64,000 nt of DNA from Anaerolineae bacterium. GTDB taxonomy: Bacteria; Chloroflexota; Anaerolineae; S140-20. The notes beneath the pieces are model-generated. The model was not told the DNA's origin, ran no database searches, and saw only the letters and a list, made by a program, of their open reading frames with translations. Made by a program: the position numbers and the translations under genes. Numbering within the stretch: the first letter of the stretch is position 1; every line of letters starts with the position of its first letter. The DNA lies in the NCBI GenBank assembly GCA_027021705.1, contig JALUTT010000056.1, positions 32,001-96,000 on the forward strand, in the 5' to 3' direction. Below are positions 42,193 to 63,166 of this stretch, in pieces.

Positions 42193-42228
42193 TCAGACTT
42201 TGATAAACCGCTTGCGGGGCCGTCGTCT

Positions 42229-42779
42229 CCCATCCGCTCAATCCGTTCTCCAATCCGTTGACAGCTTGTCCGTTCCGGCCACGGCAAGGGACACGAAGGG
42301 CACCAAGAGCTCAAAGGGCACAAAGCGGTGCGAAAGTCTGGACAACCCCTCTTGGGAGCCCCCCCCCATCCGTTCCAAATCCGTTCAATCCGTTCCCAAT
42401 CCGTTGACAGCTATCCGCTTCCCCAATCCGTCGCCAGCTCGTCCGTTCCGGCCACGGCAAGGGACACGAAGGGCACCAAGAGCTCAAAGGGCACAAAGCG
42501 GTGCGAAAGTCTGGACAACCCCTCTTGGGAGCACCAACCCCCCATCCGTTCAATCCGTTCCCAATCCGTTGACAGCTATCCGCTTCCCCAATCCGTCGCC
42601 AGTTCGTCCGCTCCGGCCACGGCAAGGGACACGAAGGGCACCAAGAGCTCAAAGGGCACAAAGCGGTACGAAAGTCTGGACAACCCCTCTTGGGAGCACC
42701 AACCCCCCATCCGTTCCAAATCCGTTCAATCCGTTCCCAATCCGTTGACAGCTATCCGCTTCCCCAATCCGTCGCCAGC
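42229..42779. repeat. Tandem array of three ~165-174 bp units plus a partial unit
   Basis: Units start at 42268, 42441 and 42606; internal aatccgtt and cacgaag/caccaag/cacaaag sub-repeats. Confidence 0.92.
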
Positions 42780-47316: not shown

Positions 47317-47380
47317 ATCGGTCTCTCCGTGGCGCACAACATGCAGTCCGTGACGGATGGCCCAGGACAGGTCCGCCGGG

Positions 47381-47409
47381 ATTCTAACACAACCCTCCCT
47401 CCCGGTCAA
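47381..47409 (-). promoter_or_regulatory. sigma70-type promoter for the lipoprotein gene
   Basis: TTGACC-17 nt-TAGAAT. Confidence 0.65.
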
Positions 47410-47420
47410 CGCAGGGGGTC

Positions 47421-47531
47421 GGTGATTACCCCATCGCCCTGCCAATCCATTGACAGCAGTCCGCTATGGGACTCAACGTGCCCTCTTCCCGGACGGCCAA
47501 TCCCCCTATCCCCGAGGTCCGGGTAATCACC
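47421..47531. mobile_element. Diverged MITE with GGTGATTACC terminal inverted repeats
   Basis: ggtgattaccc...gggtaatcacc; its right end (ggacggcc...cctatc) resembles the copies at 52.5 and 61.0 kb. Confidence 0.65.
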
Positions 47532-47543
47532 TGGCTATTCTGC

Positions 47544-47677
47544 GGAGATAGGGAGACCAGCCGTCCACGAAGGGGGCACGAATACACGAATTAAGGACCG
47601 CCTCATTCGTGCATTGGTGAGAAATTCGTGGACGGCCTGCTACAGACCACTCTCTCGCTCACTTATGGGTAATCACC
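47544..47677 (-). mobile_element. MITE copy, inverted, missing one TIR
   Basis: Near-identical to the reverse complement of 52462-52595. Confidence 0.85.
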
Positions 47678-47690
47678 ATGCTGTTCTTCC

Positions 47691-47719
47691 TTGCCGGGAT
47701 GGGGATAGGCGGGTATAAT
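47691..47719 (+). promoter_or_regulatory. sigma70-type promoter for the M50 protease operon
   Basis: TTGCCG-17 nt-TATAAT. Confidence 0.65.
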
Positions 47720-47937
47720 GAGGCTTAACTGCTAGCGCCTCCCGGCGGCTGGAAGCCGCCGCTATGAGTAGCGAAGCCGCCCCTCGGCAGCTCCTGACCC
47801 TGCCGGATCAGGAGTCTGACGAAGGCCCGGCCTTGCCTCCTGAAGCCCGCGGCTTCCGTCGCAGGGGACAGAAGCGGAAAGTGTCGGAGGATCAAGGGAG
47901 AGGCCAGCAAGCTGTCAGGTACTCGGAAGGAGAGAGC

Positions 47938-49062
47938 ATGGAACTGGACGTAGGAATGTGGCACGCTGGTGGACCGGCCTGGCCGGTGGGAGAGCCGCTC
48001 ATTCTGCTCCAATTGCGCGAGACAGTGGCCGACCTGATGACCATCGAGCGAGTCGAAGTGTTGCACCCCCCGGCCCAGGTCGTCCGCTTCCGGGGTCGCT
48101 TGATGGGAGACCCGGAGAGGATCTTTCAGCGCTTACTCCAGCGTTTCGAGGCGTTAGGATACACGCCGACGCTGGCCCGCGAGGGGACCCAGGACCTGAT
48201 CACGGCCCACCAAGGGGTGGTCCGTCCCCGCCCCGCCAGGACCTGGATCAACGCCCTTCTCTTCGTGGCGACCATCCTGACCACCCTCTACGCCGGCGCC
48301 GCCCAGCAGGGCGTTGACCTGCTGCGGGAGCCAGGCCAGTGGACAACGGGCCTCCCCTTTGCCCTCACCCTGCTGGTCATCCTGGGCACCCACGAGTTCG
48401 GCCACTACTTTGCGGCCCGCTACCACCGAGCCGCCGTCACCCTGCCCTACTTCATCCCAATGCCCTTCAACTTCCTGGGGACGATGGGAGCCTTCATCCA
48501 GCTCCGCTCGCCCATTAAGGACCGCAAGTCTCTCTTCGACATTGGCGTGGCCGGGCCACTGGCCGGTCTGGCCGTCGCCATCCCGCTGCTCCTCTACGGC
48601 CTGAGCATCTCCCCCGTGGGTCCCATTGGGCCGGGCCTGCTGGAGGGCAATTCCCTGCTCTACCTGGCCCTGAAGTACCTGGTCCACGGGCGAATCCTGC
48701 CCGGCAACGGCCTGGACGTCTGGCTCGATCCCATCGCCTTCGCCGCCTGGTTTGGGCTGTTGGTCACCTGCTTCAACCTGCTCCCCATCGGCCAACTCGA
48801 CGGCGGTCACATCGCCTACGCCCTCTGGGGACGCCGAGCCTGGACCATCGCCTCCCTCTCCATCATCATGCTCTTCGCCCTCTCCTTCTTGTGGATGGGC
48901 TGGCTGACCTGGGCGCTCCTGGTCTTCTTCCTAGGGCTGCGCCATCCGCCCCCGCTGAACGACCTAACCCCCTTAGATGGGAAGCGGCGGGCCGTGGGCA
49001 TCGCCACGGTGATCCTCTTCTTCCTGGTCTTCACCCCGGTGCCTCTCCAGGCCATCCCGTGA
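47938..49062 (+). CDS. Site-2 protease (peptidase M50); start uncertain, ORF open from 47764
   Basis: HEFGH, GTMGAFI, IGVAGPLAG, NLLPIGQLDGGH; AAGGAG before ATG 47938. Confidence 0.9.
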   Translation: MELDVGMWHAGGPAWPVGEPLILLQLRETVADLMTIERVEVLHPPAQVVRFRGRLMGDPERIFQRLLQRFEALGYTPTLAREGTQDLITAHQGVVRPRPARTWINALLFVATILTTLYAGAAQQGVDLLREPGQWTTGLPFALTLLVILGTHEFGHYFAARYHRAAVTLPYFIPMPFNFLGTMGAFIQLRSPIKDRKSLFDIGVAGPLAGLAVAIPLLLYGLSISPVGPIGPGLLEGNSLLYLALKYLVHGRILPGNGLDVWLDPIAFAAWFGLLVTCFNLLPIGQLDGGHIAYALWGRRAWTIASLSIIMLFALSFLWMGWLTWALLVFFLGLRHPPPLNDLTPLDGKRRAVGIATVILFFLVFTPVPLQAIP

Positions 49063-49064
49063 GC

Positions 49065-51491
49065 ATGCCAATGGGACGAGTTGTGCGCTTCACCCGGCTG
49101 TGGGCTCCTCTGCTGTTCGCTTTGCTCTCCCTGAGCCTGGTCCACCGGCTCCTAGATGGCACATCCTCGGCGATGGAGGAGGCCAAACCGGTCCTCTCCG
49201 CTTCCCCATCACTGCAGGGAGGAAAGGTCCAGCCGGCGTCCGTCAAGACCCTCGGCTCCGGTCAGGCCCTCTTCCCGCCCTACGGCAACGACCGGGACCG
49301 CTTTGGCTTCGATGCTGGCGCCAACCTGAGCCGCTTCGATGTGAGCCTGCTCAAGGCCGGCTGGTACAGCAATTGGTGGTACAACCTCGATCCACGCCAT
49401 CCTGACCGTCTCACCTACGTCCAGATGATCCGTCTCCGCGCCGGTGCGGATCCCTATGACCCGACCCAGGTCGCCATCACGCCGGACCTGGCGACCATTG
49501 CCCAGATCGCTCAAACCCACCCCGGCTCCCTCTGGCTGTTGGGCAACGAGCCCGATTCCCTCTACCAGGGCGAGCCCATCTACCCCGAGGTCTACGCCGT
49601 CGTCTACCACAATCTCTACTACTACATCAAGGGGGCAGACCCCACCGCCATCATCGCCAATGGAGGCATCGTTCAGCCGACCCCCTGCCGGATGGAGTAC
49701 CTGGACATCGTCTGGGAGACCTACCAGCAGACCTACGAGGAGCCGATGCCTGTGGATGTCTGGAACATCCACGCCTTCATCCTGCGGGAGGTCTACGGAA
49801 GCTGGGGGGCGAGCACTCCGCCCGGTGTGGACCCCAGTTGTGGCATAGACTACAAGATCCGGGAAGGAGATGACATCAACATCTTCCGTGCCAACCTCAT
49901 CGCCTTCCGCCAGTGGATGAAGGACAAAGGCCAGCAGAACAAGCCCCTCATCATCAGCGAGTACGGCATCCTTTGGCCCGACTGGCTGAAGGACGAGGAT
50001 GGGCGGGGATGGCCCCCGGAGCGGGTCAGCCGCTTTATGACCCGGACCTTCGACCTCTTCCTGAACGAGACCTACCCCGACGTAGGCTATCCGGCGGACG
50101 GCTACCGGTTGGTGCAGGCCTGGGCCTGGTATAGCCTCTCCGACGACCAGCAGTACAACGGCTATCTCTTCCGCAGCGACAGCTATGAGATCTCGCCGAT
50201 GGGGCAGACCTACGCCACCTACACCGCCGCTCTGTCCGACACCCCTCAGGCCGACCTGACGGTGCGGCTCTCGGTGCTGCGGGAGGGAGCGCTACGCCAC
50301 TGGGCAGCCCAGCAGCCCTCAAACACGCTGACGGTAACGCTGGAGCTGACGGGAGAAGTGGCGAACTTGGGGAAGCTGACCGCCACCAACATGAGCCTCT
50401 ACTTCGCGCCCGTCCGTTACGAGGCAACGGGAACGGTGGCGCTACCTTTCTCCACCACGCCGGTCACCGTGCCGCCCCGCTACGACGGCGTACTGGCCTG
50501 GCCCCTCTCCCTCACCTTGCAACCCCGCTACCGCTACGACCTGACCTTCCAGGCCGACCCCACCGATCAGGTAGAGGAACCACGCGAGTGGAACAACGCC
50601 GTCACCGTCACGCTGGACCTCCGGGCGGACCTGTGGCTGCGCCAGATGAGCTATGCACTGAGGGATCCCATTGGCGGACCGGGCGCTCTGACGGCCACAC
50701 TGGTGCTGACCAATGGGGGGGATTGGTGGGCAGAGCCAACCCACCTGGGCCTCGTCCTACGGGGCGAGACGGGCACGCTGCTGACCGGCCAACTAGTCTC
50801 CCAGCCCTGGTTGGCCCCCGCTCAGGGCGTAACGCTGACGGGGGTCATCAGCCGGCCGGCTCCCGGCGGTGACTTCTACCTCCTCTCCGCCGAGGTAGAT
50901 ACCTCCGATACCATCCCTGAGCAAGATGAAGGGAACAACCTCATCACGATCCCCATCCCCGTCGTCCTGACGACCACCCTCTTCCCCACCCAGACGGTCG
51001 TCCTCACGTCGGCGAGCGGCGATCTGGCCTTCGTCCTCCCGGCGGGCCTGGTGTCGCAAACATCCGTCGTGACCTACACCCCCTACTGGCTGAGCGACCT
51101 GGAGGCCACACCCTTCCACGCCGCCACAGCCTTCTCGCTGACGCTGGACAGGCCCTTGATGCCGGGGCAGGTCATCTCGTTGACCTGGCGCTACCGCGAC
51201 GAGGACCTGGCAGGCTACCCCGAGGAGCGGTTGACCCTGTACAGGCGGGCAGGAGGAACCTGGCAGCAGGCCGCCTGTGCCCCCTACCAGCGCCAGCCGG
51301 GGGTCAATCGCCTGACCGTGGGACTCTGTCAGACCGGCTTCTTCGCGCTGGGACCCGGTTACACCATCCTTGTGCCCATCGTGGCCCGAGAAGGGGTGGG
51401 GAGCACAGCGTCAGGAGCACTCCTTGGGGAGTCCGTGGGGAGAGCAGAGCGAGGGCAGCGCATCGGCCCCCTGCTGTTGCCCGATCGGTGA
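49065..51491 (+). CDS. Secreted GH-A-like protein with CARDB domains, paralogue of 11752..13416
   Basis: WLLGNEPD, LIISEYG, YLDIVWETY, GYPADGYRLVQ; two CARDB-like E..E.NN motifs; YTILVPIVAR near the C-terminus. Confidence 0.72.
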   Translation: MPMGRVVRFTRLWAPLLFALLSLSLVHRLLDGTSSAMEEAKPVLSASPSLQGGKVQPASVKTLGSGQALFPPYGNDRDRFGFDAGANLSRFDVSLLKAGWYSNWWYNLDPRHPDRLTYVQMIRLRAGADPYDPTQVAITPDLATIAQIAQTHPGSLWLLGNEPDSLYQGEPIYPEVYAVVYHNLYYYIKGADPTAIIANGGIVQPTPCRMEYLDIVWETYQQTYEEPMPVDVWNIHAFILREVYGSWGASTPPGVDPSCGIDYKIREGDDINIFRANLIAFRQWMKDKGQQNKPLIISEYGILWPDWLKDEDGRGWPPERVSRFMTRTFDLFLNETYPDVGYPADGYRLVQAWAWYSLSDDQQYNGYLFRSDSYEISPMGQTYATYTAALSDTPQADLTVRLSVLREGALRHWAAQQPSNTLTVTLELTGEVANLGKLTATNMSLYFAPVRYEATGTVALPFSTTPVTVPPRYDGVLAWPLSLTLQPRYRYDLTFQADPTDQVEEPREWNNAVTVTLDLRADLWLRQMSYALRDPIGGPGALTATLVLTNGGDWWAEPTHLGLVLRGETGTLLTGQLVSQPWLAPAQGVTLTGVISRPAPGGDFYLLSAEVDTSDTIPEQDEGNNLITIPIPVVLTTTLFPTQTVVLTSASGDLAFVLPAGLVSQTSVVTYTPYWLSDLEATPFHAATAFSLTLDRPLMPGQVISLTWRYRDEDLAGYPEERLTLYRRAGGTWQQAACAPYQRQPGVNRLTVGLCQTGFFALGPGYTILVPIVAREGVGSTASGALLGESVGRAERGQRIGPLLLPDR

Positions 51492-51520
51492 GTCGGTGAG
51501 GAGGCATCAGGAGGAAAAGG

Positions 51521-51985
51521 ATGAGCACGATTCAAGGGGTCGAGTTCAAAGAACTGGTCACCCACACCGATGAGCGCGGCTTTTTCCGCGAGGTCCTCCG
51601 GGCTTCGGATCCCATCCTGCGCGAGGGGTTCGCCCAGTGGAGCCACACGATGTCTTATACCGGCGTGGCCAAGGCATGGCACATCCACCGGAAGCAGACC
51701 GATTGGTGGTACGTGCCGGTGGGAACGATCAAAGTGGCCCTCTACGATGCCCGGCCCGACTCTCCGACGCGGGGACAGTTGATGGAGTTCCTAATGGGGG
51801 AGCGCCACGGGGCAAAAGTTCTGAAGATCCCACCCGGCGTCGCCCACGGTTACCGGGTGCTGGAGGGGCCGGCTCACGTCTTCTACTTCGTCTCCCACGA
51901 GTACGACGGGACCGACGAAGGGCGTATCCCTCACGACGACCCGGAGATCGGTTACGACTGGACTGCCGGCCCTCCGATCCGCTGA
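51521..51985 (+). CDS. rfbC: dTDP-4-dehydrorhamnose 3,5-epimerase family (RmlC cupin)
   Basis: DERGFFRE, KAWHIH, DARPDSPT, IPPGVAHGY; AGGAGG RBS. Confidence 0.85.
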   Translation: MSTIQGVEFKELVTHTDERGFFREVLRASDPILREGFAQWSHTMSYTGVAKAWHIHRKQTDWWYVPVGTIKVALYDARPDSPTRGQLMEFLMGERHGAKVLKIPPGVAHGYRVLEGPAHVFYFVSHEYDGTDEGRIPHDDPEIGYDWTAGPPIR

Positions 51986-52036
51986 GGCGATCCGCAGGTC
52001 TTCCAAAAGGTGGCTTCGGGGGAGATGAGGCTGCTC

Positions 52037-52288
52037 TCAATGCCTCGTCGCCCGGCTGGACCGGAGCTGGACCTGATACCGGTCCAGCAGGGTCCCTAGG
52101 AGGCGACGGACCTGGCGCTCATCCAGGTGGGTCTGGAAGATGAACTGCCAGTAGGGGGGCGACCAGCGCGTGTATCCGCACAGTCCGTACTCCTGGAGCA
52201 CCGCCTGAACGGCGATACAGCCGTTCTGGTCACCAACTCCCTTGACTTCGTAAGCATGGGTAGCCTCAATCCAGGAAATGCTGTTCAT
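52037..52288 (-). CDS. Small hypothetical protein
   Basis: 83 aa; GGGAG RBS; own promoter upstream. Confidence 0.6.
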   Translation of the reverse strand: MNSISWIEATHAYEVKGVGDQNGCIAVQAVLQEYGLCGYTRWSPPYWQFIFQTHLDERQVRRLLGTLLDRYQVQLRSSRATRH

Positions 52289-52419
52289 GTTCACTCCCGG
52301 CATTGCAAGAGAACCCGCTGCGTACCCTGGCAGACAACCCCCACAGCCGGCAAGGCTATCGGCCTGCCTCCGGAGGAGATAGAGCGGGGCTCTGAAGAGA
52401 TCCCGCGCCTTTACAGGAT

Positions 52420-52448
52420 ATGATAGCGCAAACCATCCACTACGTCAA
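52420..52448 (-). promoter_or_regulatory. sigma70-type promoter
   Basis: TTGACG-17 nt-TATCAT. Confidence 0.65.
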
Positions 52449-52461
52449 GGGCGGTGCACGC

Positions 52462-52614
52462 GGTGATTACCCACAAGTGAGCGAGAGCGTGGTCCGTAGC
52501 AGGCCGTCCACGAATTTCTCACCAATGCACGAATGAGGCGGTCCTTAATTCGTGTATTCGTGCCCCCTTCGTGGACGGCCAGCCTCCCTATCTCCAAAGA
52601 TATGGGTAATCACC
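52462..52614 (+). mobile_element. 153-bp MITE with GGTGATTACCCA TIRs and ~12-bp flanking direct repeats
   Basis: ggtgattaccca...tgggtaatcacc; flanks ggcggtgcacgc / gccggtgcacgc; internal gccgtccacgaa/ttcgtggacggc stem. Confidence 0.9.
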
Positions 52615-52652
52615 GCCGGTGCACGCCGTTTTTTGCTTCGTCTGTTCGCGGA

Positions 52653-55600
52653 CTATTGGGCCTCGATCCGCACCGGCAGGGGGAGGGCGTCGGCGCCGTC
52701 GGGGGCGACCAGCCGTTGGCCGCTCTCCGGGTCGTAGAGCCCCGCGCTCAGCGTGTAAACGCCCGCCGGCAATGCCCCCGGCAGTTTCAGCACCCGCTCG
52801 TCCACCACCACCTCCCCCGGCAACCACCCCGTCGTCGGGCGCCTCCACCCCGCCGGCACCCCATCCGACTGGGCCACCATCTCCCCCCCAGGCCCCCGCA
52901 GGTGCAGGAAGACGTGATAGCTCCGCTCCATCTCCGCCTCCGCCCGCCAGACCAGCGTCACCGTCAGCACCCCGCCGGGCTCCAACGCCACCACCGGCCC
53001 CTCCATCGGCGTCAAGTTCGCCCCCAGCAGCGTCGCCCGCCCTCCCAGCGTCACCCCCACAGGCAGGGCCGGCGGCGGGGCCTCCCACACCCGCGCCGGC
53101 GCGTGCAGGGTCAGCTTCCCCCAGGAGAGGGCGGCCCCGTCGGGAAGGACGAGCCGCCAGGTGTAGGCGCCGTCGGCGAGGCCGGCGGGGAGGCGGAGCA
53201 GGCGCTGGGCGCGCCAGAGACCGGCGGGGAGAACGGGCAGGGTGATGGGCCAGGAGGCGGCGACCTCCCCCGCGTCGTCCACCAACCGGAGGGGCACCGC
53301 CTGCTGCGCTCCTGCCTGCGCCCCCTCGGGCGGAGACCAGAAGAGGGTGACGAGGGCGGGGTCGCCGGGGGCGGCCTCGGCGCGGTCCACGGCGGCTCCC
53401 CAGAAGCAGGGGCGGTCGGGGGGTGGCGGGGTGCACGCCTCCAGCCGGTAGGGCATCGCCACCGCTGTCGGGTCCCAGGGCCGGCGGGGGGGCGTCACCC
53501 GCACCCGGCCCAGCTCCACCCAGGGGCCCAGGCTTCGACCGGATGGGTCGTAGATGGTGAGGGGCGTCAGCGTCTCCCGCTCGAAGAGGCTCAGCCGCAG
53601 CGTGTAATCCCCCGGCGGTGTCCCCGGCAGAGGGTCCACCAGGAAGGCGGTAAGGGCGTAGCCCTCGGCGGGCCACTCGTAGGTGGGCGGGGGGTTGCGA
53701 TACCAGCGGGAGTCCCGCAGGCCCGCCGCCGACCAGCGCAGGCCGGCCTCGTCCACCAGCGTCAGCCCCACCCGGTAGTCGCCCCTCCCCACGACCAGGG
53801 GACGCCAGTAGAGGACGACCTCCAGGGGGCCGTCGGCGGGTAGGGCCTCCGGGAGCCGCCGGTGGCCCAGCAGGGCCAGCCGCGCCTGGGCCGGATCGGG
53901 GCTGCCGAAGGTGAGCGGGAGAGGGCGATCCAAGCCCGCCAGCCCCCCCGTCGGCCCCAGCCGTGAGCGGCGCAACGGTGTGGCTCCTTGGTCCACCAGC
54001 AGGAGCTTCAGGGCGAGGAGCAGCAGGCCGAGGAGGACGTAGGGCCACAGGGCCACGGTCTCTCGGTCGAGAGGATGGGATCTCGGGCGGGCAGTCCCCA
54101 GGGCAGCGAGCAGCAGGATCAGGCTGAGCAGCGAGAGCCCGTCGGCCAGGAGCCGCAGAGGGGTCTCCTCGAAGCGGAGGACGACGGTGTGGCGACCGGC
54201 CGGCAGGTCGAGAGCGATCAGCCCTTCGGGGTCCGTGGGAACGATGGGCACCGGCTCGCCGTCCAGCCAGGCCCGCCAGCCGGGGAAGTAGAAGGCCCGG
54301 AGACGGGCCTGGAAGGCCACCGGCGTCTCCACCTCGACCCGAAGGTCGAGGGGGCCGTAGTCGGCCTGGAGGAGCCGACCGCCCTCGGGCAGATCGGCGA
54401 GGGGGAACCGCGCCTCCCAGGGCGGTCGGTCCCCCTCGTCCTGAGGCATCCGCCGGACCCAGATGGGCAGCAGTTCCCCTTTGGCCGTGGTGCCCAGGGT
54501 GTGGGTAGTCCGCTCCCAGGCGACCATTCCCTGGAGAGTCGTGTCGGCCGGCGGCGGGCAGCGGCGGGGGTAGAACCAGCCCCAGTGGCCCATCCCCAGC
54601 AGGAGGAGGAAGACCGGAGGGAGCAACAGAGGAACCCAGCGGGCGAGAGCGGTCCGGCTCCCGACGGCGGCATCGGACCGGTGGGTGCGCGGAACCGATC
54701 TGCCCTCCACGGGAGCCCCGGTCAGGAGAGCAGCGATCAGGGTGGCCGGGGCCAGGAAGCGCCACGGGAACTGGAAGGCGGCCAGGGGAGGCAGGGCGTC
54801 CCACAGGGGCCGGGAGAGGGGCAAGGCCAGCAGGAGGTAGCCGGCCAGGGCCAGGAGGAGCAGTCCCGTGAGGATGCGTCGTTCGCGGTCCCGTCGGAGG
54901 CCGACCAGCCCTCCCCCCAGGGCCAGGACCAGGAGGAGCCCTCCCAGCCCCCGGGGGGGCCAGTCGTTGATGAGGGTGGGATCGGCATTGCGGGGCAGGG
55001 CCAACATCTGGTCCAAGGGGAGGAAGTTGTAGGCGTACTGGAAGGGCCAGGCGCTCTGGGCCCGCTGAAACTGGATGGTGCCTCGTTCCAAGAGAGCCGG
55101 CAGCCAGAAGAGGGCACTTCCCCCCAGCCCCAGGGCCAGGGCCAGCCCTCCTCGCCCTAGGGAACCCAAGAGCGGCCCGTGGCTGTGGGTCCCTGCGGGG
55201 CGGGGAGGCCGGGGTGCCCGGTCGGACTCTCCCAGGGCGACGGCCAGCATCCATCCTAGGAAGAGGGGGAGGAAAGCGTAGGCCGAGACATCGTGGGTCA
55301 ACATCAAGGCGACCAGCCCCAGGACGGCGGCGGCCAGCCCTCGGCGCTCCCTCCATCGCTGCCAACGACGAAGCCCCCACAGGACGAGAGGGGGAAAGCT
55401 CCAGGCCAACGTCTCCGAGAGGCTGGCCCGGTAGAAGGCGACGTAAGCGTGGAAGGGGGCGTAGAGGAAGGCGATGGCCGCAGCCCAACCGCCGGACTCT
55501 CCCCACAGGTCCCGGGCCAGCAGCCAGAGGGTCAAGCCGGAGAGGAGCAGTCCCAGCCCATAGGTGGCGTTGAGGGCCAGAGACCACGGGAGCCCCACCA

Positions 55601-55853: not shown

Positions 55854-55896
55854 CCGTGGGTCTCGCATTCCTTGGGAGCGCAGGCAAGTAGTCCCA

Positions 55897-55973
55897 ATGA
55901 TACCACACCGGCTGGCAAAGGACAACAGGCGGGAGAGGGGGGAAATTGACAGGGCAGGCAACAACGGTATAAT
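55897..55973. promoter_or_regulatory. Back-to-back divergent sigma70 promoters
   Basis: Minus: TTGTCC(55925-20)-17 nt-TATCAT(55902-897). Plus: TTGACA(55946)-16 nt-TATAAT(55968). Confidence 0.65.
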
Positions 55974-55996
55974 TCGGGGGACTCTTGGAGCAGACG

Positions 55997-56839
55997 ATGA
56001 CCCCTCTCAAAGCCTTGGCCGAGCCGACGGGAGTGGATCTCCTCAAGCCTCAGCGGGTCTGGGGGCCCTGGCGGCTGGTGACCCTCATCCTGCTCCTGGT
56101 GGGGCTGCTTCCGGCCTGCCGCCGGACCGACGGCGATGGACCGCAGCGCCCCGTCACGCTGACCGTCTCGGCGGCGTCCGACCTCACCCTCGCCTTCCGG
56201 GAGATCGGCCGGGAGTTCGAGGAGGAAACAGGCATCCGGGTGCGCTTCAACTTCGGTTCCAGCGGCCAACTGGCCCAGCAGATCGAGCAGGGTGCGCCCG
56301 TGGACCTCTTCGCCTCGGCCAACGTGGCCTACATCGAAGAGCTGGAGGAGCGGGGGTTGATCCTCCCCGACACGAAGCAGGTCTACGCCCGAGGCCGGAT
56401 CATCCTCTGGACCCGGGCCGACAGCCCGCTGCAGATCGAAGGGATCGAGGAGCTGGCCCGCCCCCAGGTGGAGCGGATCGCCATCGCCAACCCAGACCAC
56501 GCCCCCTACGGCGTCGCCGCCCGACAGGCCCTCCAGACAGCCGGCCTCTGGGAGGCGATCCAGCCCAAGCTGGTGCTGGGTGAGAACGTGCGCCAGACCC
56601 TTCAGTACGCCGAGACGGGCAACGTGGATGTGGCCATCGTCGCCCTCTCACTGGGTGTGGGGGGAGAAGGGCGCTGGGTGCTGATCCCTGAGGCACTCCA
56701 CCGGCCCATAGACCAAGCGATGGCCGTCGTCCGGGGCACGCCCCACGAAGAGGAGGCCCGTCGGTTCGCCGCCTTCGTCAGCGGTCCCCAGGGACGGCCG
56801 ATCTTGCGCCGGTACGGCTTTACCCTGCCCGGCGAGTGA
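55997..56839 (+). CDS. modA: Molybdate ABC transporter substrate-binding lipoprotein
   Basis: LPAC lipobox, VSAASDL, FGSSGQL, IANPDHAPYG, GENVRQ. Confidence 0.93.
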   Translation: MTPLKALAEPTGVDLLKPQRVWGPWRLVTLILLLVGLLPACRRTDGDGPQRPVTLTVSAASDLTLAFREIGREFEEETGIRVRFNFGSSGQLAQQIEQGAPVDLFASANVAYIEELEERGLILPDTKQVYARGRIILWTRADSPLQIEGIEELARPQVERIAIANPDHAPYGVAARQALQTAGLWEAIQPKLVLGENVRQTLQYAETGNVDVAIVALSLGVGGEGRWVLIPEALHRPIDQAMAVVRGTPHEEEARRFAAFVSGPQGRPILRRYGFTLPGE

Positions 56840-56906
56840 GTGTCCATCCTGGCCCTCTCGCCGATCGGAGCGCTGTAGCGGCCTTTCTTCAGAGGGAGCA
56901 ACGGTT

Positions 56907-57548
56907 ATGGACTGGCAGCCCCTTCTCCTGTCGCTCCGGGTGACGGCGGTCGCCGTCGTCCTCATCTTCGGGGTGGGATTGGCTCTGGCCGTCCTCCTGG
57001 CCCGGAGCCGTTTTCCCGGCCAGACCCTGCTGGAGACGGTGATCAACCTGCCCCTGGTGTTGCCCCCCAGCGTGGTGGGCTACTACCTGCTGCTGGCCTT
57101 GGGGCGGGGGAGTCCGCTGGCCGAGGGGTTGGGGGTGCGCCTGCTCTTCACCTGGCCGGCCGCTGCCCTCGCCTCGGCCAGCGTCGGGCTGCCGCTGATG
57201 GTCCAGGCCGCCCGGGCGGCCATCGCCAGCGTGGACCCGGCCCTGGAGAACGCCGCCCGCACCCTGGGCTCCTCGGAGCCGGAGGTCTTCTGGCGGGTCA
57301 CCTTCCCTCTGGCCCGGCGGGGGATCTTGGCCGGCCTGGTGCTGAGCGCCGCTCGCGCCCTGGGGGAGTTTGGGGCTACCCTGATGGTGGCCGGCAACAT
57401 CCCCGGACGCACCCAGACGCTCCCTCTGGCCATCTACGATGCGGTCCAGAACCGCCAGTACGCTATGGCCAACCAGATGGTCCTGCTGATGACGGTCCTC
57501 GCCTTCCTCAGCCTGATTCTGGTGCGCCGGCTGGAGCAGACCGGCTGA
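56907..57548 (+). CDS. modB: Molybdate ABC transporter permease
   Basis: LPLVLPPSVVGYYLL, ARALGEFGAT...GNIPGRTQT. Confidence 0.95.
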   Translation: MDWQPLLLSLRVTAVAVVLIFGVGLALAVLLARSRFPGQTLLETVINLPLVLPPSVVGYYLLLALGRGSPLAEGLGVRLLFTWPAAALASASVGLPLMVQAARAAIASVDPALENAARTLGSSEPEVFWRVTFPLARRGILAGLVLSAARALGEFGATLMVAGNIPGRTQTLPLAIYDAVQNRQYAMANQMVLLMTVLAFLSLILVRRLEQTG

Positions 57549-57567
57549 GGCAGGAGTTCTGACAACG

Positions 57568-58731
57568 ATGCCCTCAACCCGCTTGGTGGCCGACATCGAG
57601 AAGCAACTGGAGCACTTCCGCCTGGCCCTTCGGCTGGAGGTGGGGACCGAGGTCCTGGTCCTCTTCGGTCCCTCCGGCGCGGGCAAGACGACGGTCCTGA
57701 ACGCCATCGCCGGGCTGATGACCCCCGATGCCGGGGAGATCACGCTGGACGGGCGGCCCTTCTTCCGACGTCACCGCCCCGGGCCGGCGGTGAACCTGCC
57801 GGCCCGCAAGCGGCGGATCGGCTACGTCTTCCAGCAGTACGCCCTCTTCCCCCATCTGACGGCGCTGGAGAACGTGGCCTACCCCCTGCGACGCCGGCGG
57901 GACGGGCCTCAGCAGGCGATGGCCCTCCTGAAGAAGATGGGCATCGCCCACCTGGCCCATCGTTACCCCCACGAGATGTCCGGCGGCCAGCAACAGCGGG
58001 TCGCCATCGCCCGGGCCCTGGCCGCCGACCCCCAGGTCCTCCTCCTGGACGAGCCCTTCTCGGCGCTGGACACCACCTTGCGCGAACGGCTCCAGCGGGA
58101 GCTGCGCGACCTGCAGCGGGAGCTGGAGCTGGTGGTGCTCTACGTAACCCACAGCTTGGAAGATGCCTTCGCCGTGGGCCATCGGCTGGCGGTCATCCGT
58201 CAAGGGCAGGTCGAGCAGATGGGGCCGGTGGAGGCCGTCTTCCGCCGCCCGACGAACCGCCAGGTGGCGGAGATCATGGGCATCCGTAACCTCTTCCACG
58301 CCCGCGTGGTGGAACGGAGGGCGACAGGCTTGGTGCTGGATTGGGACGGGCTGCGGCTGGAAGCGCCCCCCCAGCCGGCCGGGGTGGGGGAGGTGGTGAC
58401 CGCCTACATCCGCCCCGAGGACATCAAGGTGCTCTACCCCGACCGACCCTTGCGGCCCATCCTCCGGCCCAACCAGGTGGTCGGTCGGATCGTGCAACGG
58501 CAGCCCAACTCCAGCTTCCAGACCCTGCGGGTCGCCCTGGCCAACGGCCACCAGGTGGAGATCCGGTTCCCCGTCTACGCCTACGCGCCCCTTTCGCTGA
58601 GGCCGGGGGAGGAGGTCCACCTCTCCCTCCGCAAAGATGGGTTGGTGATCCTCCACCCGCCCCCCTCGCGCCGGTCGGGCTCGGAGCCGTCGGGCTTGGA
58701 AAGCCCTCCTACGGCAGCAGACCGGATGTAG
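57568..58731 (+). CDS. modC: Molybdate ABC transporter ATP-binding protein with TOBE domain
   Basis: GPSGAGKT, MSGGQQQR, LLDEPF; the stop lies inside the first REP unit. Confidence 0.9.
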   Translation: MPSTRLVADIEKQLEHFRLALRLEVGTEVLVLFGPSGAGKTTVLNAIAGLMTPDAGEITLDGRPFFRRHRPGPAVNLPARKRRIGYVFQQYALFPHLTALENVAYPLRRRRDGPQQAMALLKKMGIAHLAHRYPHEMSGGQQQRVAIARALAADPQVLLLDEPFSALDTTLRERLQRELRDLQRELELVVLYVTHSLEDAFAVGHRLAVIRQGQVEQMGPVEAVFRRPTNRQVAEIMGIRNLFHARVVERRATGLVLDWDGLRLEAPPQPAGVGEVVTAYIRPEDIKVLYPDRPLRPILRPNQVVGRIVQRQPNSSFQTLRVALANGHQVEIRFPVYAYAPLSLRPGEEVHLSLRKDGLVILHPPPSRRSGSEPSGLESPPTAADRM

Positions 58732-59010
58732 GAGGCCCTTCCAGGGCCGAGCTTCCGGGCCGAACGCACGTCGAGCTTGGAAAGCTCTCCTACAGCAGCA
58801 GACCGGATGTAGGAGGCCCTTCCAGGGCCGAGCTTCCGGGCCGAACGCACGTCGAGCTTGGAAAGCTCTCCTACAGCAGCAGACCGGGCGTAGGAGGCCC
58901 TTCCAGGGCCGAGCTTCCGGGCCGAACGCACGTCGAGCTTGGAAAGCTCTCCTACAGCAGCAGACCGGGCGTAGGAGGCCCTTCCAGGGCCGAGCTTCCG
59001 GGCCGAACGC
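58690..59010. repeat. Four 81-bp tandem units of inverted GTAG-type REP doublets (BIME/REPIN-like)
   Basis: Units at 58690, 58771, 58852 and 58933: tcgagcttggaaagctctcctac-15 nt-gtaggaggcccttccagggccga-20 nt. Confidence 0.92.
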
Positions 59011-59834
59011 TAGCCGCTCCGGTGGAGCTTGCCGGCCCGCTTGGCGTACCGCTCCGCCAGGCCGAAGACCCACAGCCCAACGGGAACGGCTATCAGGCCC
59101 ATCACCAGCACCGGCCAGACGTAGGGCCAGAGGCGCAGGGTAGGCAGCCCCTCCAGCAGCGCCCGACGGGTCCCCTCCAGTACGTAGGTGGCCGGGCTGA
59201 GGATGGCCAACCGCTGCAGGAAGGCGGGCAGCACCTCCACCGGGTAGTAGACGCCCGAGACCAGCAGCAGCATAGCGATGACGACGTGGGTCATCTGGGA
59301 GCCCCGCTCCGGGAACAGGAGGGGCAGGATCGAGGCCATAATCCCCACGCCGATGAAGGAGAGGCTGCCGGCCATCAGCATCAGTGTGCCGCCGAAGAGG
59401 TTGGCCCCCTTTAGGCTGATGTCGAAGAGCAACACCGTCACCAACAGGATGACGGCGGTGAAGGCCAGGCTGTAGAGGACGGCGAAGAGGGTCTGGCCGG
59501 CCATGTGGGTGATGCGCCGGATGGGGGCCATCAGGGTGTACTCGATGGTCCCCTCCCAGCGCTCCATCCCGATCACGTCGGTGATCCAGTAGAAGATCAT
59601 CGAGAGATAGCGCCAAACCAGCGTCCCGATCACCAGGTAGAGCACCAAGAAGCGGGCATCCATCTCTTGACCGCTGATCCGCTCCATTCCCAGGCCAATG
59701 TAGCTGACGGAGAGGCTGTTGGCGATGGAGTAGACCAGCCAGACCATCTCCCAGGACCAGTACCGTTTAACCAGGTTGGCGTTGCGCTCCACAAAGGCGT
59801 AAGAGGCACGCAGTTGGTGTAGGGCCATTGACAT
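59010..59834 (-). CDS. ABC-2 type exporter permease
   Basis: ERWEGTIEYTLMAP, SGVYYPVEVLP, SPATY; six TM helices. Confidence 0.9.
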   Translation of the reverse strand: MSMALHQLRASYAFVERNANLVKRYWSWEMVWLVYSIANSLSVSYIGLGMERISGQEMDARFLVLYLVIGTLVWRYLSMIFYWITDVIGMERWEGTIEYTLMAPIRRITHMAGQTLFAVLYSLAFTAVILLVTVLLFDISLKGANLFGGTLMLMAGSLSFIGVGIMASILPLLFPERGSQMTHVVIAMLLLVSGVYYPVEVLPAFLQRLAILSPATYVLEGTRRALLEGLPTLRLWPYVWPVLVMGLIAVPVGLWVFGLAERYAKRAGKLHRSG

Positions 59835-59835
59835 C

Positions 59836-60675
59836 TCAGCCTCCCGATTCTGGTTCTTCTTCGGTAAGCGGTCGCCCCGTCAACGCCAGGAAGACGTCCT
59901 CCAGAGTAGGCAGGTCCCCGTTTTGCTGGGGCACCAGGGCTTTCAGGTTGCCGGGGGTGTCAAGGGCCACGATGCGCCCCCGGTCCATAATGGCGATGCG
60001 GTCGCAGAGGACCTCGGCTTCCGCCATATCGTGGGTGGTGAGCAGGATGGTCGTCCCGTGCACCTCCCGCAGCTCCCGCACCACCGCCTGCACCTCCCGC
60101 TTGGAGCGGGGGTCTAGGCCGGTGGTCGGCTCGTCCAGCAGCAATAGGCGGGGGCGGGAGAGGAGGGCGCGGGCGATGGCGACCTTCTGCTGCATGCCGC
60201 GCGACATCTCCTCCATCGGGCGGTAGATGACCCGCTCTTCCAGCCCCAGCCGGGTGAGGATTTCGACCACCTGGCGGCGGATCTCGCGCCCGCCCATTCC
60301 GTAAAGGCGGGCCCCGTACTGCAGGTTCTCCATCGGCGAGAGCTTCTTGAAGAAACTGGCCTCGACCGAGACGCGGTTGATCAGCCGCTGGACCTGCATA
60401 GCCTGTCGGACCACGTCGTAGCCGAAGACCAGGATCTCCCCGCCGTCGGGGAGGAGCAGGGTGGCGATCAGCCGGATCAGGGTGGACTTGCCGGAACCGT
60501 TAGGCCCCAGCACTCCGAAGATCTCCCCCTCCCGCACAGTGAAGGAGACGTGGTCCACAGCGACCACACGGGGTTGTCCATTGCCGCTCCCCCTTTGGCG
60601 CAGGCGCTGCCAGAGGGGGACCCCACGCTTGCCAAAGTGTTTGTACGCCTCACGGACGATGACAGCCTCTGACAT
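59836..60675 (-). CDS. ABC exporter ATP-binding protein (DrrA/NodI-like)
   Basis: GPNGSGKST, MSRGMQQK, LDEPTTGLDP, TTHDM, TLEDVF. Confidence 0.92.
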   Translation of the reverse strand: MSEAVIVREAYKHFGKRGVPLWQRLRQRGSGNGQPRVVAVDHVSFTVREGEIFGVLGPNGSGKSTLIRLIATLLLPDGGEILVFGYDVVRQAMQVQRLINRVSVEASFFKKLSPMENLQYGARLYGMGGREIRRQVVEILTRLGLEERVIYRPMEEMSRGMQQKVAIARALLSRPRLLLLDEPTTGLDPRSKREVQAVVRELREVHGTTILLTTHDMAEAEVLCDRIAIMDRGRIVALDTPGNLKALVPQQNGDLPTLEDVFLALTGRPLTEEEPESGG

Positions 60676-60693
60676 CGTTTCACCTCGCTCGTA

Positions 60694-60738
60694 AGGAAAA
60701 GAAAAAGGCCACGGAGAGGGTCAGGGAACCCCGTGGCC
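60694..60738 (-). terminator. Proximal leader terminator hairpin
   Basis: ggccacgg/ccgtggcc stem followed on the minus strand by TTTTTCTTTTCCTT. Confidence 0.65.
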
Positions 60739-60757
60739 AGGGAAGGGCGAAGACAGG

Positions 60758-60800
60758 CCAAAAGGAAGCGGCCACGGGGCTGGAGTGCGCCCGTGGCCGC
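60758..60800 (-). terminator. Attenuator terminator hairpin
   Basis: 11-bp stem gcggccacggg/cccgtggccgc followed on the minus strand by TTCCTTTT. Confidence 0.7.
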
Positions 60801-60822
60801 AATAAGGACCGAAAAAGATTAC

Positions 60823-60915
60823 CTACTTTTCAGGGGGCGCACTCCAGAAGTGGAAAGAAACACTGCTGCTAGGAACGGTGCGCAGGCGGATGATGGGGCG
60901 AAAGCCGCCGAACAT
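60823..60915 (-). CDS. Putative 30-aa leader peptide MFGGFRPIIRLRTVPSSSVSFHFWSAPPEK
   Basis: Perfect AAGGAGG SD (60930-60924); lies downstream of the promoter; overlaps the antiterminator. Confidence 0.65.
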   Translation of the reverse strand: MFGGFRPIIRLRTVPSSSVSFHFWSAPPEK

Positions 60916-60970
60916 TGGGTGCGCCTCCTTTCTTGCATCTCTTGCACTGAAGATCGGAAGAAGTGCCAAA

Positions 60971-60999
60971 AGTGTACCACAATTCGGGCAGGGCGTCAA
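60971..60999 (-). promoter_or_regulatory. sigma70 promoter of the leader/ABC exporter operon
   Basis: TTGACG-17 nt-TACACT, with TG extension. Confidence 0.7.
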
Positions 61000-61011
61000 G
61001 GTCATTTCCGC

Positions 61012-61164
61012 GGTGATTACCCACAAGTGAGCGAGAGCGTGGTCCGTAGCAGGCCGTCCACGAATTTCTCACCAATGCACGATTGAGGCGGTCCTTCATT
61101 CGTGTATTCGTGCCCCCTTCGTGGACGGCTAGCCTCCCTATCTCCAAAGATATGGGTAATCACC
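61012..61164 (+). mobile_element. 153-bp MITE copy
   Basis: Near-identical to 52462-52614; flanks ggtcatttccgc / ggtcctttccgt. Confidence 0.9.
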
Positions 61165-63166
61165 GGTCCTTTCCGTCCACGGTGATCATGCCCACGACGA
61201 CCTCATCCCCCACCCGGCTGCGGGCATCGGTGAAAGCGGCGAAGGGGGAGCCGCTGTCGTACCAGCCCACCAAGAGAGGGTAGCGCCCTGGAGCTACCTC
61301 ATCCGGCAGGAGGACCTCGAAGCGCTCCCGTACCCCTTGGCCCGGCTGCCACGCCGTCGTGGGGTACAGCGCCAGGGTGGGGAGGTGGACGATGCGGGCA
61401 TCGTCCACGCCCCCCAGCCGGCTCACCGCCAGCAGGGGAGGGCGATCGGCCAGAGAGCCTAGAGCGATCCAGTCGTAGCGCAGGCGGAACCGCCGCCCGC
61501 CCAGGGGCTCCACCTCTGCCCCCACCAACCCGATGGCCTCCCCAAAGCGGGCCTGAAGGGGGGAAGGATCGGCGGCAAACCACTCGACCTGCTGCCCCAG
61601 CGCCCGGCCGGCCGGTGGGTGGCGCTGGAAGAGGAGTAAGCCATCCCGGGCAGCCACCAGCCCGAAGGCCGGATCGCGCAGCAGCAGCGTGATGGCAGGC
61701 ACGTCGTACATCACGCCGCCGGCGATGTAGGCCCCCTTGACGGGAACGGCGTAGTCGAAGAGGGCATCGGGCAGCGCGTAGGCCACCTCATCCAGACGAC
61801 GGGCCAGACGCAGGGAGGCCGGGCTGGGGGGCTCGTCCCCATAGCGCACCAGGTAGAGGGTCGGGCGGTTGGTCAGGCGTGGGGCCAGAAAGGTGGAGAC
61901 CGCCAAGGGGAGGTCGGGAGGGACTTGGGCCGGCAGCCAGCGATCCTTAAGGGCATCGCGGGAGGTACGGCCATAGGCCCAGGGGTCAAGGCCCCGCCCG
62001 GGCACCCCCGTCCAGAAGAGGGGGCTGAGAGGGGTGTCCACGAGCCCCGCGTTGAAGAGGGCAACGATGGCCAGGGTCAGGAAGACCTGCCCCCGCCAGG
62101 GCGGGCGGGTTCTCCGCCGATCGGAGGCCTGAAGTGCCGGCCCCCTGACCAGGGCAGCGGCACCGTAGACAATGGCGGCCACCAGGAAGGGGACGGCCAG
62201 GGCGTAGTGGTGGTAGCGGTAGTCATAGACGGGGCCGGGGCCGGTGCTGAGGAGCACGGGGAGGGCGATGATGGCGGCCGGGAGGAACCAAGAGGGGGCG
62301 TGGCGTCCCAGCAGCAGGGCCGGGCCGAAGACTACGATGCCGTTCAGGAGCCGGTCGCCCACCGTGGCAGGCACCAACCGGTTCAGCGCCCCGAAGTAGA
62401 AGGTCAGCAGGTAGTCCAGGCCGGTGGGAGAGGGAGGAGGCATCTGGGCCGGGGCAAAGAGGGGCTGCACGACCAGGAGGGCCATCCCTGTCCAGGCCAG
62501 ACCGGCCAGGATGGTGATCCGGCCCATCCGGCGCTCGCCCCGCCATCCGATGACCACCCCCAGGGTGGTGACGACGATGCCCACGTAGAGCTTGCAGCTG
62601 AGGGCCAGGGCCAGCCAGAGGGCGTAGGGCCGCCAGGCCCGACGGTCGAGAGCCTCGATGGTCAGGAGCAGCAAGGGCATCGCCAGGGTGTCGCCGTGAA
62701 AATCGAAGAGCACAGCGGTCTGGGCAACAGGGTAGAGCAGGTAGCTCAGCATCAGCGCCCGAGCAGCGTTCCGGCTGCCGGTGTGGCGCAGGACCAGCCG
62801 GTAGACAGGCAACGCCCCCAACGTGAAGAGGGCCGCCTGGACCACCAGCAGGAGGCGGGGATCGGGCCAGAGCCGGTAGGGGAGGGCGAGGAGGAAGTAG
62901 ATCACCTCGACGTGGAGGGCAAGACGGCTGAGGTTACCTTCCGTAAAGGTGAACTCCAGGGGCCGCCCGTGACCGGCACTCCAGATCGCCTGAGCCATAT
63001 TGCCCAGATCGAACATCCCAACGTTGTAAGCCCCGTAGCGCATCAAGCTGAGGGTGGTCAGCATCCCCCCCACGACCAGTGCCATCACCAACGCCCACCC
63101 ATCCATTGGAGGCGGATGATGGCCCCTAACCCTCGCCGCCGGTCGGTCAACGGCCTGGCTCATCAT
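61160..63166 (-). CDS. DUF2079 GT-C-like membrane protein with a C-terminal Ig-like domain
   Basis: FDLGNMAQAIWS...LALH, LFDFH, YHY; ARFGEAIGLVG...YPTTAWQPG...GRYPLLVGWY. Confidence 0.85.
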   Translation of the reverse strand: MMSQAVDRPAARVRGHHPPPMDGWALVMALVVGGMLTTLSLMRYGAYNVGMFDLGNMAQAIWSAGHGRPLEFTFTEGNLSRLALHVEVIYFLLALPYRLWPDPRLLLVVQAALFTLGALPVYRLVLRHTGSRNAARALMLSYLLYPVAQTAVLFDFHGDTLAMPLLLLTIEALDRRAWRPYALWLALALSCKLYVGIVVTTLGVVIGWRGERRMGRITILAGLAWTGMALLVVQPLFAPAQMPPPSPTGLDYLLTFYFGALNRLVPATVGDRLLNGIVVFGPALLLGRHAPSWFLPAAIIALPVLLSTGPGPVYDYRYHHYALAVPFLVAAIVYGAAALVRGPALQASDRRRTRPPWRGQVFLTLAIVALFNAGLVDTPLSPLFWTGVPGRGLDPWAYGRTSRDALKDRWLPAQVPPDLPLAVSTFLAPRLTNRPTLYLVRYGDEPPSPASLRLARRLDEVAYALPDALFDYAVPVKGAYIAGGVMYDVPAITLLLRDPAFGLVAARDGLLLFQRHPPAGRALGQQVEWFAADPSPLQARFGEAIGLVGAEVEPLGGRRFRLRYDWIALGSLADRPPLLAVSRLGGVDDARIVHLPTLALYPTTAWQPGQGVRERFEVLLPDEVAPGRYPLLVGWYDSGSPFAAFTDARSRVGDEVVVGMITVDGKDR

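Follow-up and report, generated by a model that had tools for sequence, protein, structure and literature searches.

The window analyzed here, a 64,000-nucleotide stretch of DNA from an Anaerolineae bacterium (C56:32001-96000 in a 5.19-Mb Chloroflexota metagenome-assembled genome, or MAG, of 183 contigs and 94.9% completeness), carries four short repeats that each lie beside a promoter-like sequence. An earlier note, made from the letters of the window alone, had described four elements with GGTGATTACC/GGTAATCACC ends, and all four were confirmed, at 47421-47531, 47544-47677 (single end), 52462-52614, and 61012-61164. Their ends lie 11, 13, 13, and 12 nt from a -35 hexamer, and a -10 box follows 17 nt past each hexamer (Table 1), both as the earlier note had read them; throughout, promoters are predictions from sequence, made from matches to TTGACA and TATAAT. 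The four repeats would be copies of a 157-bp nonautonomous MITE (miniature inverted-repeat transposable element) with terminal repeats of ~18 nt (NN-GGTGATTACCCAYA...) and an 8-bp target duplication. We judge the chances about even that they represent a Tn5/IS4-type MITE family which inserts 3 bp upstream of the -35 box and finds its site through promoter-bound RNA polymerase.

Table 1. MITE copies, target duplications, and adjoining predicted promoters in the window
Feature	Position	Strand	Description
Element A, 111-bp variant	47419..47533		Same 11-nt terminal core, GGTGATTACCC; interior different
Promoter at element A	47381..47409	-	-35 TTGACC 47404-47409, spacer 17 nt, -10 TAGAAT 47381-47386; leftwards into open reading frame 46159..47445 (-)
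MITE copy B, reversed	47539..47679	-	Promoter-side end kept (47677 + 2 nt); 19 nt of distal inverted repeat gone
Copy B target duplication	47534-47541 and 47680-47687		GCTATTCT vs GCTGTTCT; 7/8
Promoter at copy B	47691..47719	+	-35 TTGCCG, spacer 17 nt, -10 TATAAT; into Peptidase_M50 gene 47764-49062
MITE copy C, full, 157 bp	52460..52616	+	2-nt outer repeat extension + GGTGATTACC core ... GGTAATCACC + 2 nt; reference copy
Copy C target duplication	Promoter side 52452..52459; distal 52617-52624		CGGTGCAC; 8/8 identical
Promoter at copy C	52420..52448	-	-35 TTGACG 52443-52448, spacer 17 nt, -10 TATCAT 52420-52425; score 10/12, offset 13
MITE copy D, full	61010..61166	+	98% identity to copy C
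Copy D target duplication	Promoter side 61002..61009; distal 61167-61174		TCATTTCC (promoter side), TCCTTTCC (distal); 7/8
Promoter at copy D	60971..60999	-	-35 TTGACG 60994-60999, spacer 17 nt, -10 TACACT 60971-60976; score 9, offset 12

Comparison of the window with itself joins three of the four repeats closely. A repeat search aligned 52459-52615 with 61009-61165 at 98% over 157 nt; it also matched 47539-47677, in inverted orientation, to copies C and D, with 94% identity across 139 nt. Element A resembles the other copies solely in the 11 terminal nt and in a portion of one arm; no target duplication was found when its flanks were read, and a single paired element of its type was found in the whole genome. 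Two further observations concern this pair of neighbors. What copy B has lost is precisely its distal terminal repeat, a stretch of 19 nt bounded by two GG dinucleotides, and the outer GC and the distal duplication are kept. Element A abuts that distal duplication, at a divergent promoter pair (47532-47544).

The relation to promoters extends across the genome. A blastn search with copy C recovered 92 full-length copies, of which 2 at contig ends were dropped and 90 analyzed; a further 69 MITE ends are unpaired. Promoters were scored as matches to TTGACA plus TATAAT, with a spacer of 16 to 18, a threshold of at least 8/12, and the -35 box at 11 to 15 nt from the GGTGATTACC core. By this measure 77 of the 90 copies have an outward-facing promoter-like site on exactly one flank, whereas 0.26% of 20,000 random flanks reach the same score, a strong enrichment. 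The classification of the 77 uses the promoter score itself, and the unbiased evidence lies in the offset profiles. These are narrow: the -35 box stands at 13 nt in 44 copies (the mode), at 12 in 15, at 14 in 14, and at 11 and 15 in 2 each, and the spacer is 17 nt in 67, 16 in 6, and 18 in 4. Exact TTGAC, read outward 11 to 15 nt from the end, occurs at the left of 29 copies and the right of 22, as against 1 occurrence on the left flank and 0 on the right for the opposite strand, and no inward-facing site scoring at least 9/12 was present at offsets 11 to 15 in the 90 copies. The sites match on average 4.82/6 positions of the -35 box and 5.13/6 of the -10 box. Furthermore, the first 300 nt downstream contain the start of an open reading frame (ORF) of at least 120 aa with high G+C at third codon positions (GC3) in 48/77 copies on the promoter side, compared to 22/75 on the distal side.

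Such precision bears on the simplest alternative, in which elements insert at random and are retained only between genes, where they do no harm and where, in a compact genome, a promoter is often close by. MITEs generally do accumulate between genes, as described in the sections of a review consulted here (PMC10969869). However, 73 of the 77 copies fall at offsets 12 to 14, a precision of 1 nt that goes beyond what selection could impose; no copy has a promoter on both flanks, and inward-facing sites are missing as described above. The offset distribution refutes the absence of targeting, to which we attach a practically negligible probability. The claim of the earlier note that the family is placed just upstream of intact promoters is accordingly supported, with targeting to within ~1 nt.

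Its claim that the same end always faces the promoter did not survive the genome-wide count, where the promoter lies on the left flank in 45 copies, the right in 32, neither in 13, and both in 0. The 45:32 split has a two-sided p of ~0.14 (normal approximation), and four of four alike in the window is expected ~14% of the time by arithmetic. A consistent end would have suited the idea that the element inserts in one orientation and has been recruited as an insulator or tuning module. Besides the equivalent end at the promoter in 4/4 window copies, this idea draws on the displacement of all upstream DNA from the core promoter, on the occupation of the three window loci in ~2% diverged strains also, and on a very stable structure, as a single strand of the MITE folds to one long hairpin (-78.9 kcal/mol, z -8.7). 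The genome-wide split argues against it, as do the autonomous copies described below, which divide 10:6 and 9:7. Moreover, no T-run follows the hairpin, a search of Rfam with the MITE matched no family, and the partial copies, tandem pile-ups, and copies with one end lost make up the distribution of a selfish family. We regard recruitment of this kind as highly improbable.

The geometry of insertion can be read from the flanks. The earlier note had seen the ~12 nt beside each complete copy recur imperfectly on its other side; the recurrence is real, but it is better explained by an inverted repeat that runs 2 nt further, followed by an 8-bp target duplication. When flanks were compared in all registers, the best was an 8-bp duplication starting 2 nt outside the GGTGATTACC core, in which 27/90 pairs are perfect and mean identity is 0.64, against ~0.3 to 0.45 in neighboring registers. 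Counted with these 2 outer nt, the element has a length of 157 bp. Of the two positions outside the 10-nt core, the inner is conserved (G in both outward-read flanks) and the outer only weakly. The gap between the duplication and the -35 hexamer is 3 bp; measured from the true end of the element, the hexamer is 11 nt away, and from the core, 13. With a 17-bp spacer, the target covers approximately -46 to -39, with its center near -42.5; it is AT enriched (~0.5, compared to 0.34 for the genome) and has no consensus. One target copy stays next to the promoter. Because the insertion point is upstream of the -35 box, the core promoter and this target copy remain intact, and DNA further upstream is displaced by the length of the element.

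Target duplications also recur within tandem arrays. On contig C156, an array holds three copies of CTGCTGAC, as flank, spacer, and flank, and at several other tandem junctions the spacer repeats an outer flank; the analysis comprised one fully resolved array and nine further junctions with one or both outer ends missing. These arrays are consistent with repeated insertion at the same promoter-defined site, to judge from the junctions. Head-to-tail elements 11 to 13 nt apart, with the outer duplication repeated between them, are seen at C156:16617-16945, C47:4346-4520, C107:31849-32022, and C125:11698-11871. With its target duplication, small size, lack of coding sequence, and many copies, the element has the hallmarks of a MITE.

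A further hallmark of MITEs, terminal repeats in common with an autonomous element, is found in related genomes. The 14-mer GGTGATTACCCAYA is present in 88/401 genomes of the class, this one included, and the reversed control pattern in 0 of them; 2 of the 88 are unpublished genomes, without which the count is 86/399. Facing pairs of ends ~1.43 kb apart occur in G189 (three), G279, G305, G107, and G365. At 5 of these 7 loci, one uninterrupted ORF of 419 to 468 aa fills most of the interval, and at the other 2 (a G189 copy and G305) the longest ORFs are 255 to 320 aa. The left end of the MITE equals the ends of G189 elements over 18 nt and its right end equals an end of a G279 element over 17 nt, with the 11-nt core invariant in 15/15 aligned ends. 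The search for an autonomous insertion sequence with the same ends, proposed in the earlier note, was therefore answered by ~1.43-kb elements in related genomes, with a transposase whose family is identifiable.

Evidence for the identity of this enzyme comes from profiles, catalytic residues, and the predicted fold. The ORFs match IS4-family models only below the cutoff (best NF033590, 47.8 versus a cutoff of 160 bits), as do 21/22 aligned members for NF033590, and Pfam DDE_Tnp_1 is matched at an E value of 0.016. All sequences of the 22-member alignment have D141, D234, and E364, spaced by 93 and 130; this is the D(60-110)D(100-150)E triad of the IS4 family, and it aligns with the Tn5 catalytic core. 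R360 and E364 of the motif (W/F/Y)-2-R-3-E-6-(Q/K) are conserved, while its canonical Y and K are seen only in distant alignment members and are replaced with W and Q in the P0001 clade. The family profile aligns to Tn5 transposase residues 55-373 (E value, 7e-15). An AlphaFold model (predicted local distance difference test score, 84.8) returned Tn5 transposase for all of the top 5 Foldseek hits (E values, 5e-17 to 7e-16; template modeling scores, 0.59 to 0.65), the hit at 5e-17 having a template modeling score of 0.63. The transposase is, by these profile and model comparisons, a Tn5/IS4-like DDE enzyme encoded by ~1.43-kb elements in related genomes. It has abundant homologues, with 2,256 at an E value of at most 0.001 when 8,000 candidates were scored; among the 120 homologues listed, almost all are unnamed or labeled hypothetical protein.

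Insertion at a set distance from promoters has published precedents among elements with a different transposase. In the portions of the work of Guerillot et al. (2014) used here, TnGBS and related insertion sequences insert 15 to 17 bases upstream of the -35 box of sigmaA promoters (PMC3942029). The group p-MULT 3 (TnGBS/ISLre2) peaks at 16 bp from the right inverted repeat; 13 ISKra4-group elements (p-MULT 4) give a similar, weaker signal on both sides, linked to their nearly symmetrical repeats; and duplications of p-MULT elements are 8 or 9 bp (PMC3942029). The family described here resembles TnGBS, ISLre2, and ISKra4 in its fixed distance upstream of the -35 box, in leaving the promoter intact, in using both orientations (there, where the two terminal repeats are nearly symmetrical), and in a duplication that is mostly 8 bp in the MITE. 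Unlike theirs, which is Mutator-like, its transposase is Tn5/IS4-like, and unlike TnGBS, it lies 11 nt from the hexamer by its element end, 3 nt by its duplication, where TnGBS lies 15 to 17 nt. A derivative MITE of ~90 copies also sets it apart, as "MITE" and "miniature" have 0 occurrences in the covered text of PMC3942029.

These likenesses raise the alternative that an insertion sequence of the ISKra4 group (Mutator-like, p-MULT 4) gave rise to the MITE. That group is known to insert upstream of the -35 box at a set distance, in both orientations when its repeats are symmetrical, and with 8- to 9-bp duplications (PMC3942029, in part). A single transposase fragment of the ISKra4 family occurs in the genome, on contig C168, at 247 bits and above the cutoff. 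Yet neither this fragment nor its continuation on C41 has a GGTGATTACC end, and the fragment has no similarity to the transposase of the end-bearing elements (best E value, 1.4). None of the 22 members of the transposase family matches the ISKra4, ISLre2, or IS256 models, and the predicted fold is Tn5-like. The published material differs as well: GGTGATTACC/GGTAATCACC does not occur in the 4 supplementary files of PMC3942029 that were searched (one further file lay outside the search), three ISKra4-group rows show GGGCG/GGGTG ends and 9-bp repeats in place of NN-GGTGATTACC, and the -35 box stands 11 nt away in the present family, compared to the 15 to 17 nt published for TnGBS and related elements (PMC3942029). 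Ends, transposase models, and fold thus largely refute an ISKra4 origin, which we consider very unlikely, and by ends and profiles we conclude that the MITE belongs with Tn5/IS4-like elements. As for the ISKra4-family transposase gene fragment itself, it is split over C168 (1-1123) and the end of C41 (~14100-14248), its 3' side apparently ends ...GAGTCACCC, and it is unrelated to the MITE.

Similarities to IS4/Tn5 elements of the IS50 and ISPepr1 subgroups include a Tn5-like fold over the whole length, DDE spacing of 93/130, a YREK-like motif, and a single ORF in ~1.4 kb. The duplication is short as well, at 7 to 8 bp; duplications in those subgroups are 7 to 8 bp for ISPepr1 and 8 to 9 bp for IS50, according to the parts of De Palmenaer et al. 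(2008) used here (PMC2266710). Differences from the IS4 family are the scores below NCBIfam IS4 cutoffs and termini of NN-GGTG, not CA or CT. The word "promoter" appears 0 times in the text of the IS4 family review as covered here (PMC2266710). As a small element, the MITE resembles Correia, ERIC, and RUP in being short, noncoding, intergenic, and hairpin forming, with terminal inverted repeats, a target duplication, and dependence on a transposase supplied in trans. Correia, ERIC, and RUP are noted for promoters or terminators of their own, whereas here no recognized signal is present and the exact position beside a resident promoter stands out (PMC10969869, sections consulted).

The habit of inserting at promoters is not confined to the MITE. 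In the genome collection, whose loci come from MAGs labeled Anaerolineae, Chloroflexia, Herpetosiphonaceae, and others at identities to the query down to ~51%, an end was found for 28 of 29 loci, and a promoter (at least 8/12) adjoins one end in 16/28, 5' of the gene in 10 and on the 3' side in 6. Metagenome contigs gave 73 distinct loci, 40 with both flanks, and a promoter in 20/40 (5' side, 9; 3' side, 7; both, 4); of those scoring at least 9, 31/33 are at offsets 12 to 14. Where one locus was taken for each genome with the 14-mer, 10/35 ends have a promoter, again with a peak at 13; 2 of the 35 ends come from an unpublished genome, neither with a promoter. The simple score detects a promoter in about half of the autonomous copies, compared to 86% of MITE copies, and duplications of the autonomous copies, judged by eye, are 7 to 8 bp. 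By these flanks the promoter habit is a property of the family.

One comparison shows a site without the element. G327, from the genus of G189 and with no end motif, has DNA that matches the flank on the promoter side of a G189 copy and continues to the very boundary of the element, and the empty site reads ...TGTCAAGGGGTTTTTTCGG..., that is, the -35 box, 3 nt, and a single target copy. On the far side, alignment resumes only 69 nt past the element, and what is compared is therefore two species rather than a clean allele. Empty sites, to which the earlier note had looked for confirmation, accordingly gave a promoter that pre-exists at one orthologous site. Separately, three tandem units of ~100 nt lie upstream of the promoter orthologous to the G189 site (L083, G327:C3:15930-16230).

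How the site is found is a question on which the -10 box is informative. The earlier note had suggested guidance by RNA polymerase or by the -35 sequence; dependence on the -10 box favors the former, and the -35 box alone does not explain targeting. A -10 box of at least 5/6 at the right spacing accompanies 4.3% of the 7,956 genomic TTGAC sites, compared to 37/51 TTGAC sites that flank a MITE, and of the 341 genomic TTGAC sites with such a near-consensus box, 37 carry a MITE. Coding-like DNA was masked wherever an open frame of 120 codons or more gave an ORF of 100 aa or more, counted from its first start codon, and GC3 was at least 0.78; the mask covers 73% of the genome. Outside this mask, TTGACR sites are occupied in 39/208 cases (19%) when the -10 match is at least 5/6, in 10/97 (10%) when it is 4/6, and in 6/1,220 (0.5%) when it is 3/6 or less. 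Poor-10 TTGACR sites lie partly inside genes, from which selection would remove insertions. An insertion beside a nonpromoter TTGACA between genes should be harmless, and selection therefore explains the occupancy contrast poorly.

The same element and Tn5/IS4-like enzyme could instead read DNA directly, recognizing the -35 hexamer in one arm together with the AT-richer 8-bp target, with enrichment of -10 boxes arising because insertions at nonpromoter TTGACA sites are lost or otherwise rarer. We hold this to be unlikely, though much less so than the other alternatives. TTG is the most conserved part of the flank, the hexamer is TTGACA, TTGACG, or TTGACC in 44/77 copies, the target is AT enriched, the -35 box is only 3 bp from the cut, where a transpososome could reach it, and a few copies stand beside TTGACA without a -10 box, for example at C144:41553. 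Against direct reading, occupancy of TTGACR outside coding-like DNA depends ~38-fold on a box 23 bp away, and the extended -10 TG at -15/-14 is enriched, being present in 36/77. Insertions also occur at the same offset where the -35 box is poor and the -10 box is consensus, in at least 6 cases (TACCCC, TGGTCT, and TCGCCT among the weak hexamers), and the distal arm is without a mirror-image preference. The spread of distances is similar for both boxes (standard deviation, 0.76 to the -35 and 0.86 to the -10). On these sequence patterns, recognition through RNA polymerase is probably to be preferred over direct read-out of DNA.

Several observations weigh against polymerase-guided insertion by this family. 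By the simple score, 13/90 MITE copies and 20/40 insertion sequences from metagenome contigs have no promoter. An ORF begins within 300 nt downstream in only the 48/77 given above, and the promoters are predictions. The coding mask is crude and under-masks, so that some of the noncoding TTGACR sites with a poor -10 box are really genic. Strong target-arm specificity in the IS4 subgroup, described in the part of PMC2266710 used here, keeps direct reading a live alternative. Searches of this assembly with proteins, profiles, tblastn, and hmmsearch found no member of the transposase family (the MAG being 94.9% complete); the cognate transposase expected of a MITE is present in other genomes of the class. 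Finally, no empty allele of the three window loci was found in contigs of four public runs, where contigs break at the elements; in the ~2% diverged runs X3 and X4, contigs end inside the elements at all three loci.

Taken together, we regard as established the position of the insertions, the duplication, the lack of a fixed orientation, the ends shared with autonomous elements, the family of the transposase, and one pre-existing promoter at an empty site. The mechanism that we propose has the following steps. The parent family would be the ~1.43-kb insertion sequences widespread in Chloroflexota, whose single gene encodes a DDE transposase of Tn5/IS4 type. As the transposase was not found in this assembly, we infer that the MITE is moved in trans by such an enzyme. 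Integration would take place 3 bp upstream of a -35 hexamer of sigma70/sigmaA type, in either orientation, and the site would be found through promoter-bound holoenzyme rather than the -35 hexamer alone. Class II activators contact sigma region 4, and the center of the target, near -42.5, coincides with what we take to be the class II activator position. The enzyme could dock there, beside sigma region 4 or the alpha C-terminal domain. A parallel is offered by yeast Ty3, a eukaryotic long terminal repeat retroelement with an unrelated integrase that inserts at RNA polymerase III genes. It too is placed within a few bases of the transcription start, by contact with the initiation machinery; its mechanism has been shown experimentally, unlike the one proposed here. 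Contact with the RNA polymerase initiation complex has also been proposed for the Mutator-like elements, by analogy with Ty3 (PMC3942029, in part).

Other features of the window accompany these elements. The next Pfam-supported gene on the strand of the copy D promoter, ~290 nt away, encodes an ABC ATPase (59836-60675). On the other side of copy D, a 668-aa DUF2079 ORF, 61160..63166 (-), has its stop codon inside the right terminal repeat (61160-61166), and the insertion has therefore either taken the place of the final codons of the gene or provided its stop. Within the MITE, the internal hairpin (~44-130; GCCGTCCACGAA...TTCGTGGACGGC) matches short repeats in 3 genomes of other families (G016, G018, and G019; loci L002, L003, L006, and L009) that are without MITE ends. 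A DNA search with the whole element in 40 relatives found no full MITE copy, the matches being limited to the internal hairpin. From these matches, the hairpin core may be a separate palindromic repeat captured between transposon ends.

Tandem repetition is also seen in the window outside the MITE. An array of ~five 81-nt units at 58607-59091 has central copies 97% identical; contigs of two other runs skip 128 nt of it (58880 to 59009), which points to a copy number that varies between strains. Four tandem units of ~165 to 173 nt, the central two 98% identical, lie at 42206-42884. A tandem duplication of at least ~0.8 kb (2096-2887 and 3868-4650; spacing, 1763 to 1772 nt) is 77 to 86% identical and is probably two adjacent paralogous genes.

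Promoter targeting itself is already known from Mutator-like elements (PMC3942029, in part). Here this known behavior is joined to a transposase of an unrelated superfamily, its geometry differs, and it is seen in a MITE of high copy number. A literature search, to which subscription journals and ISfinder were outside scope, found promoter targeting for Mutator-like elements only and no IS4-type example, and the family may already be named in ISfinder. In the sections consulted, distance to genes is remarked on in a 2022 survey for ISLre2 and ISKra4 alone (PMC9208149), and a 2024 review of MITEs has no case of promoter targeting (PMC10969869).

Bacterial promoter-targeted transposition is documented for one superfamily, the Mutator-like elements, and its mechanism is still a proposal. 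A second, unrelated type of enzyme with a different geometry, 3 bp from the -35 box and with an 8-bp stagger centered near -42.5, would show convergence and would allow a comparison to find a common RNA polymerase contact. Tn5 is the structurally best-understood transposase, and the family, if so placed, would be tractable for learning how a transposase reads an initiation complex; such enzymes could interest users who want gene-sparing insertions. That a Chloroflexota family of Tn5/IS4 type evolved promoter homing independently of Mutator-like elements, docking on RNA polymerase at -46 to -39, with MITEs that tag strong housekeeping promoters, is a wider reading that we offer tentatively, at somewhat less than even chances. 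In a genome available only from metagenomes, 77 MITE copies mark predicted promoters to the base, and if the wider reading is true, such MITEs would be base-accurate natural tags of strong housekeeping promoters in uncultured bacteria.

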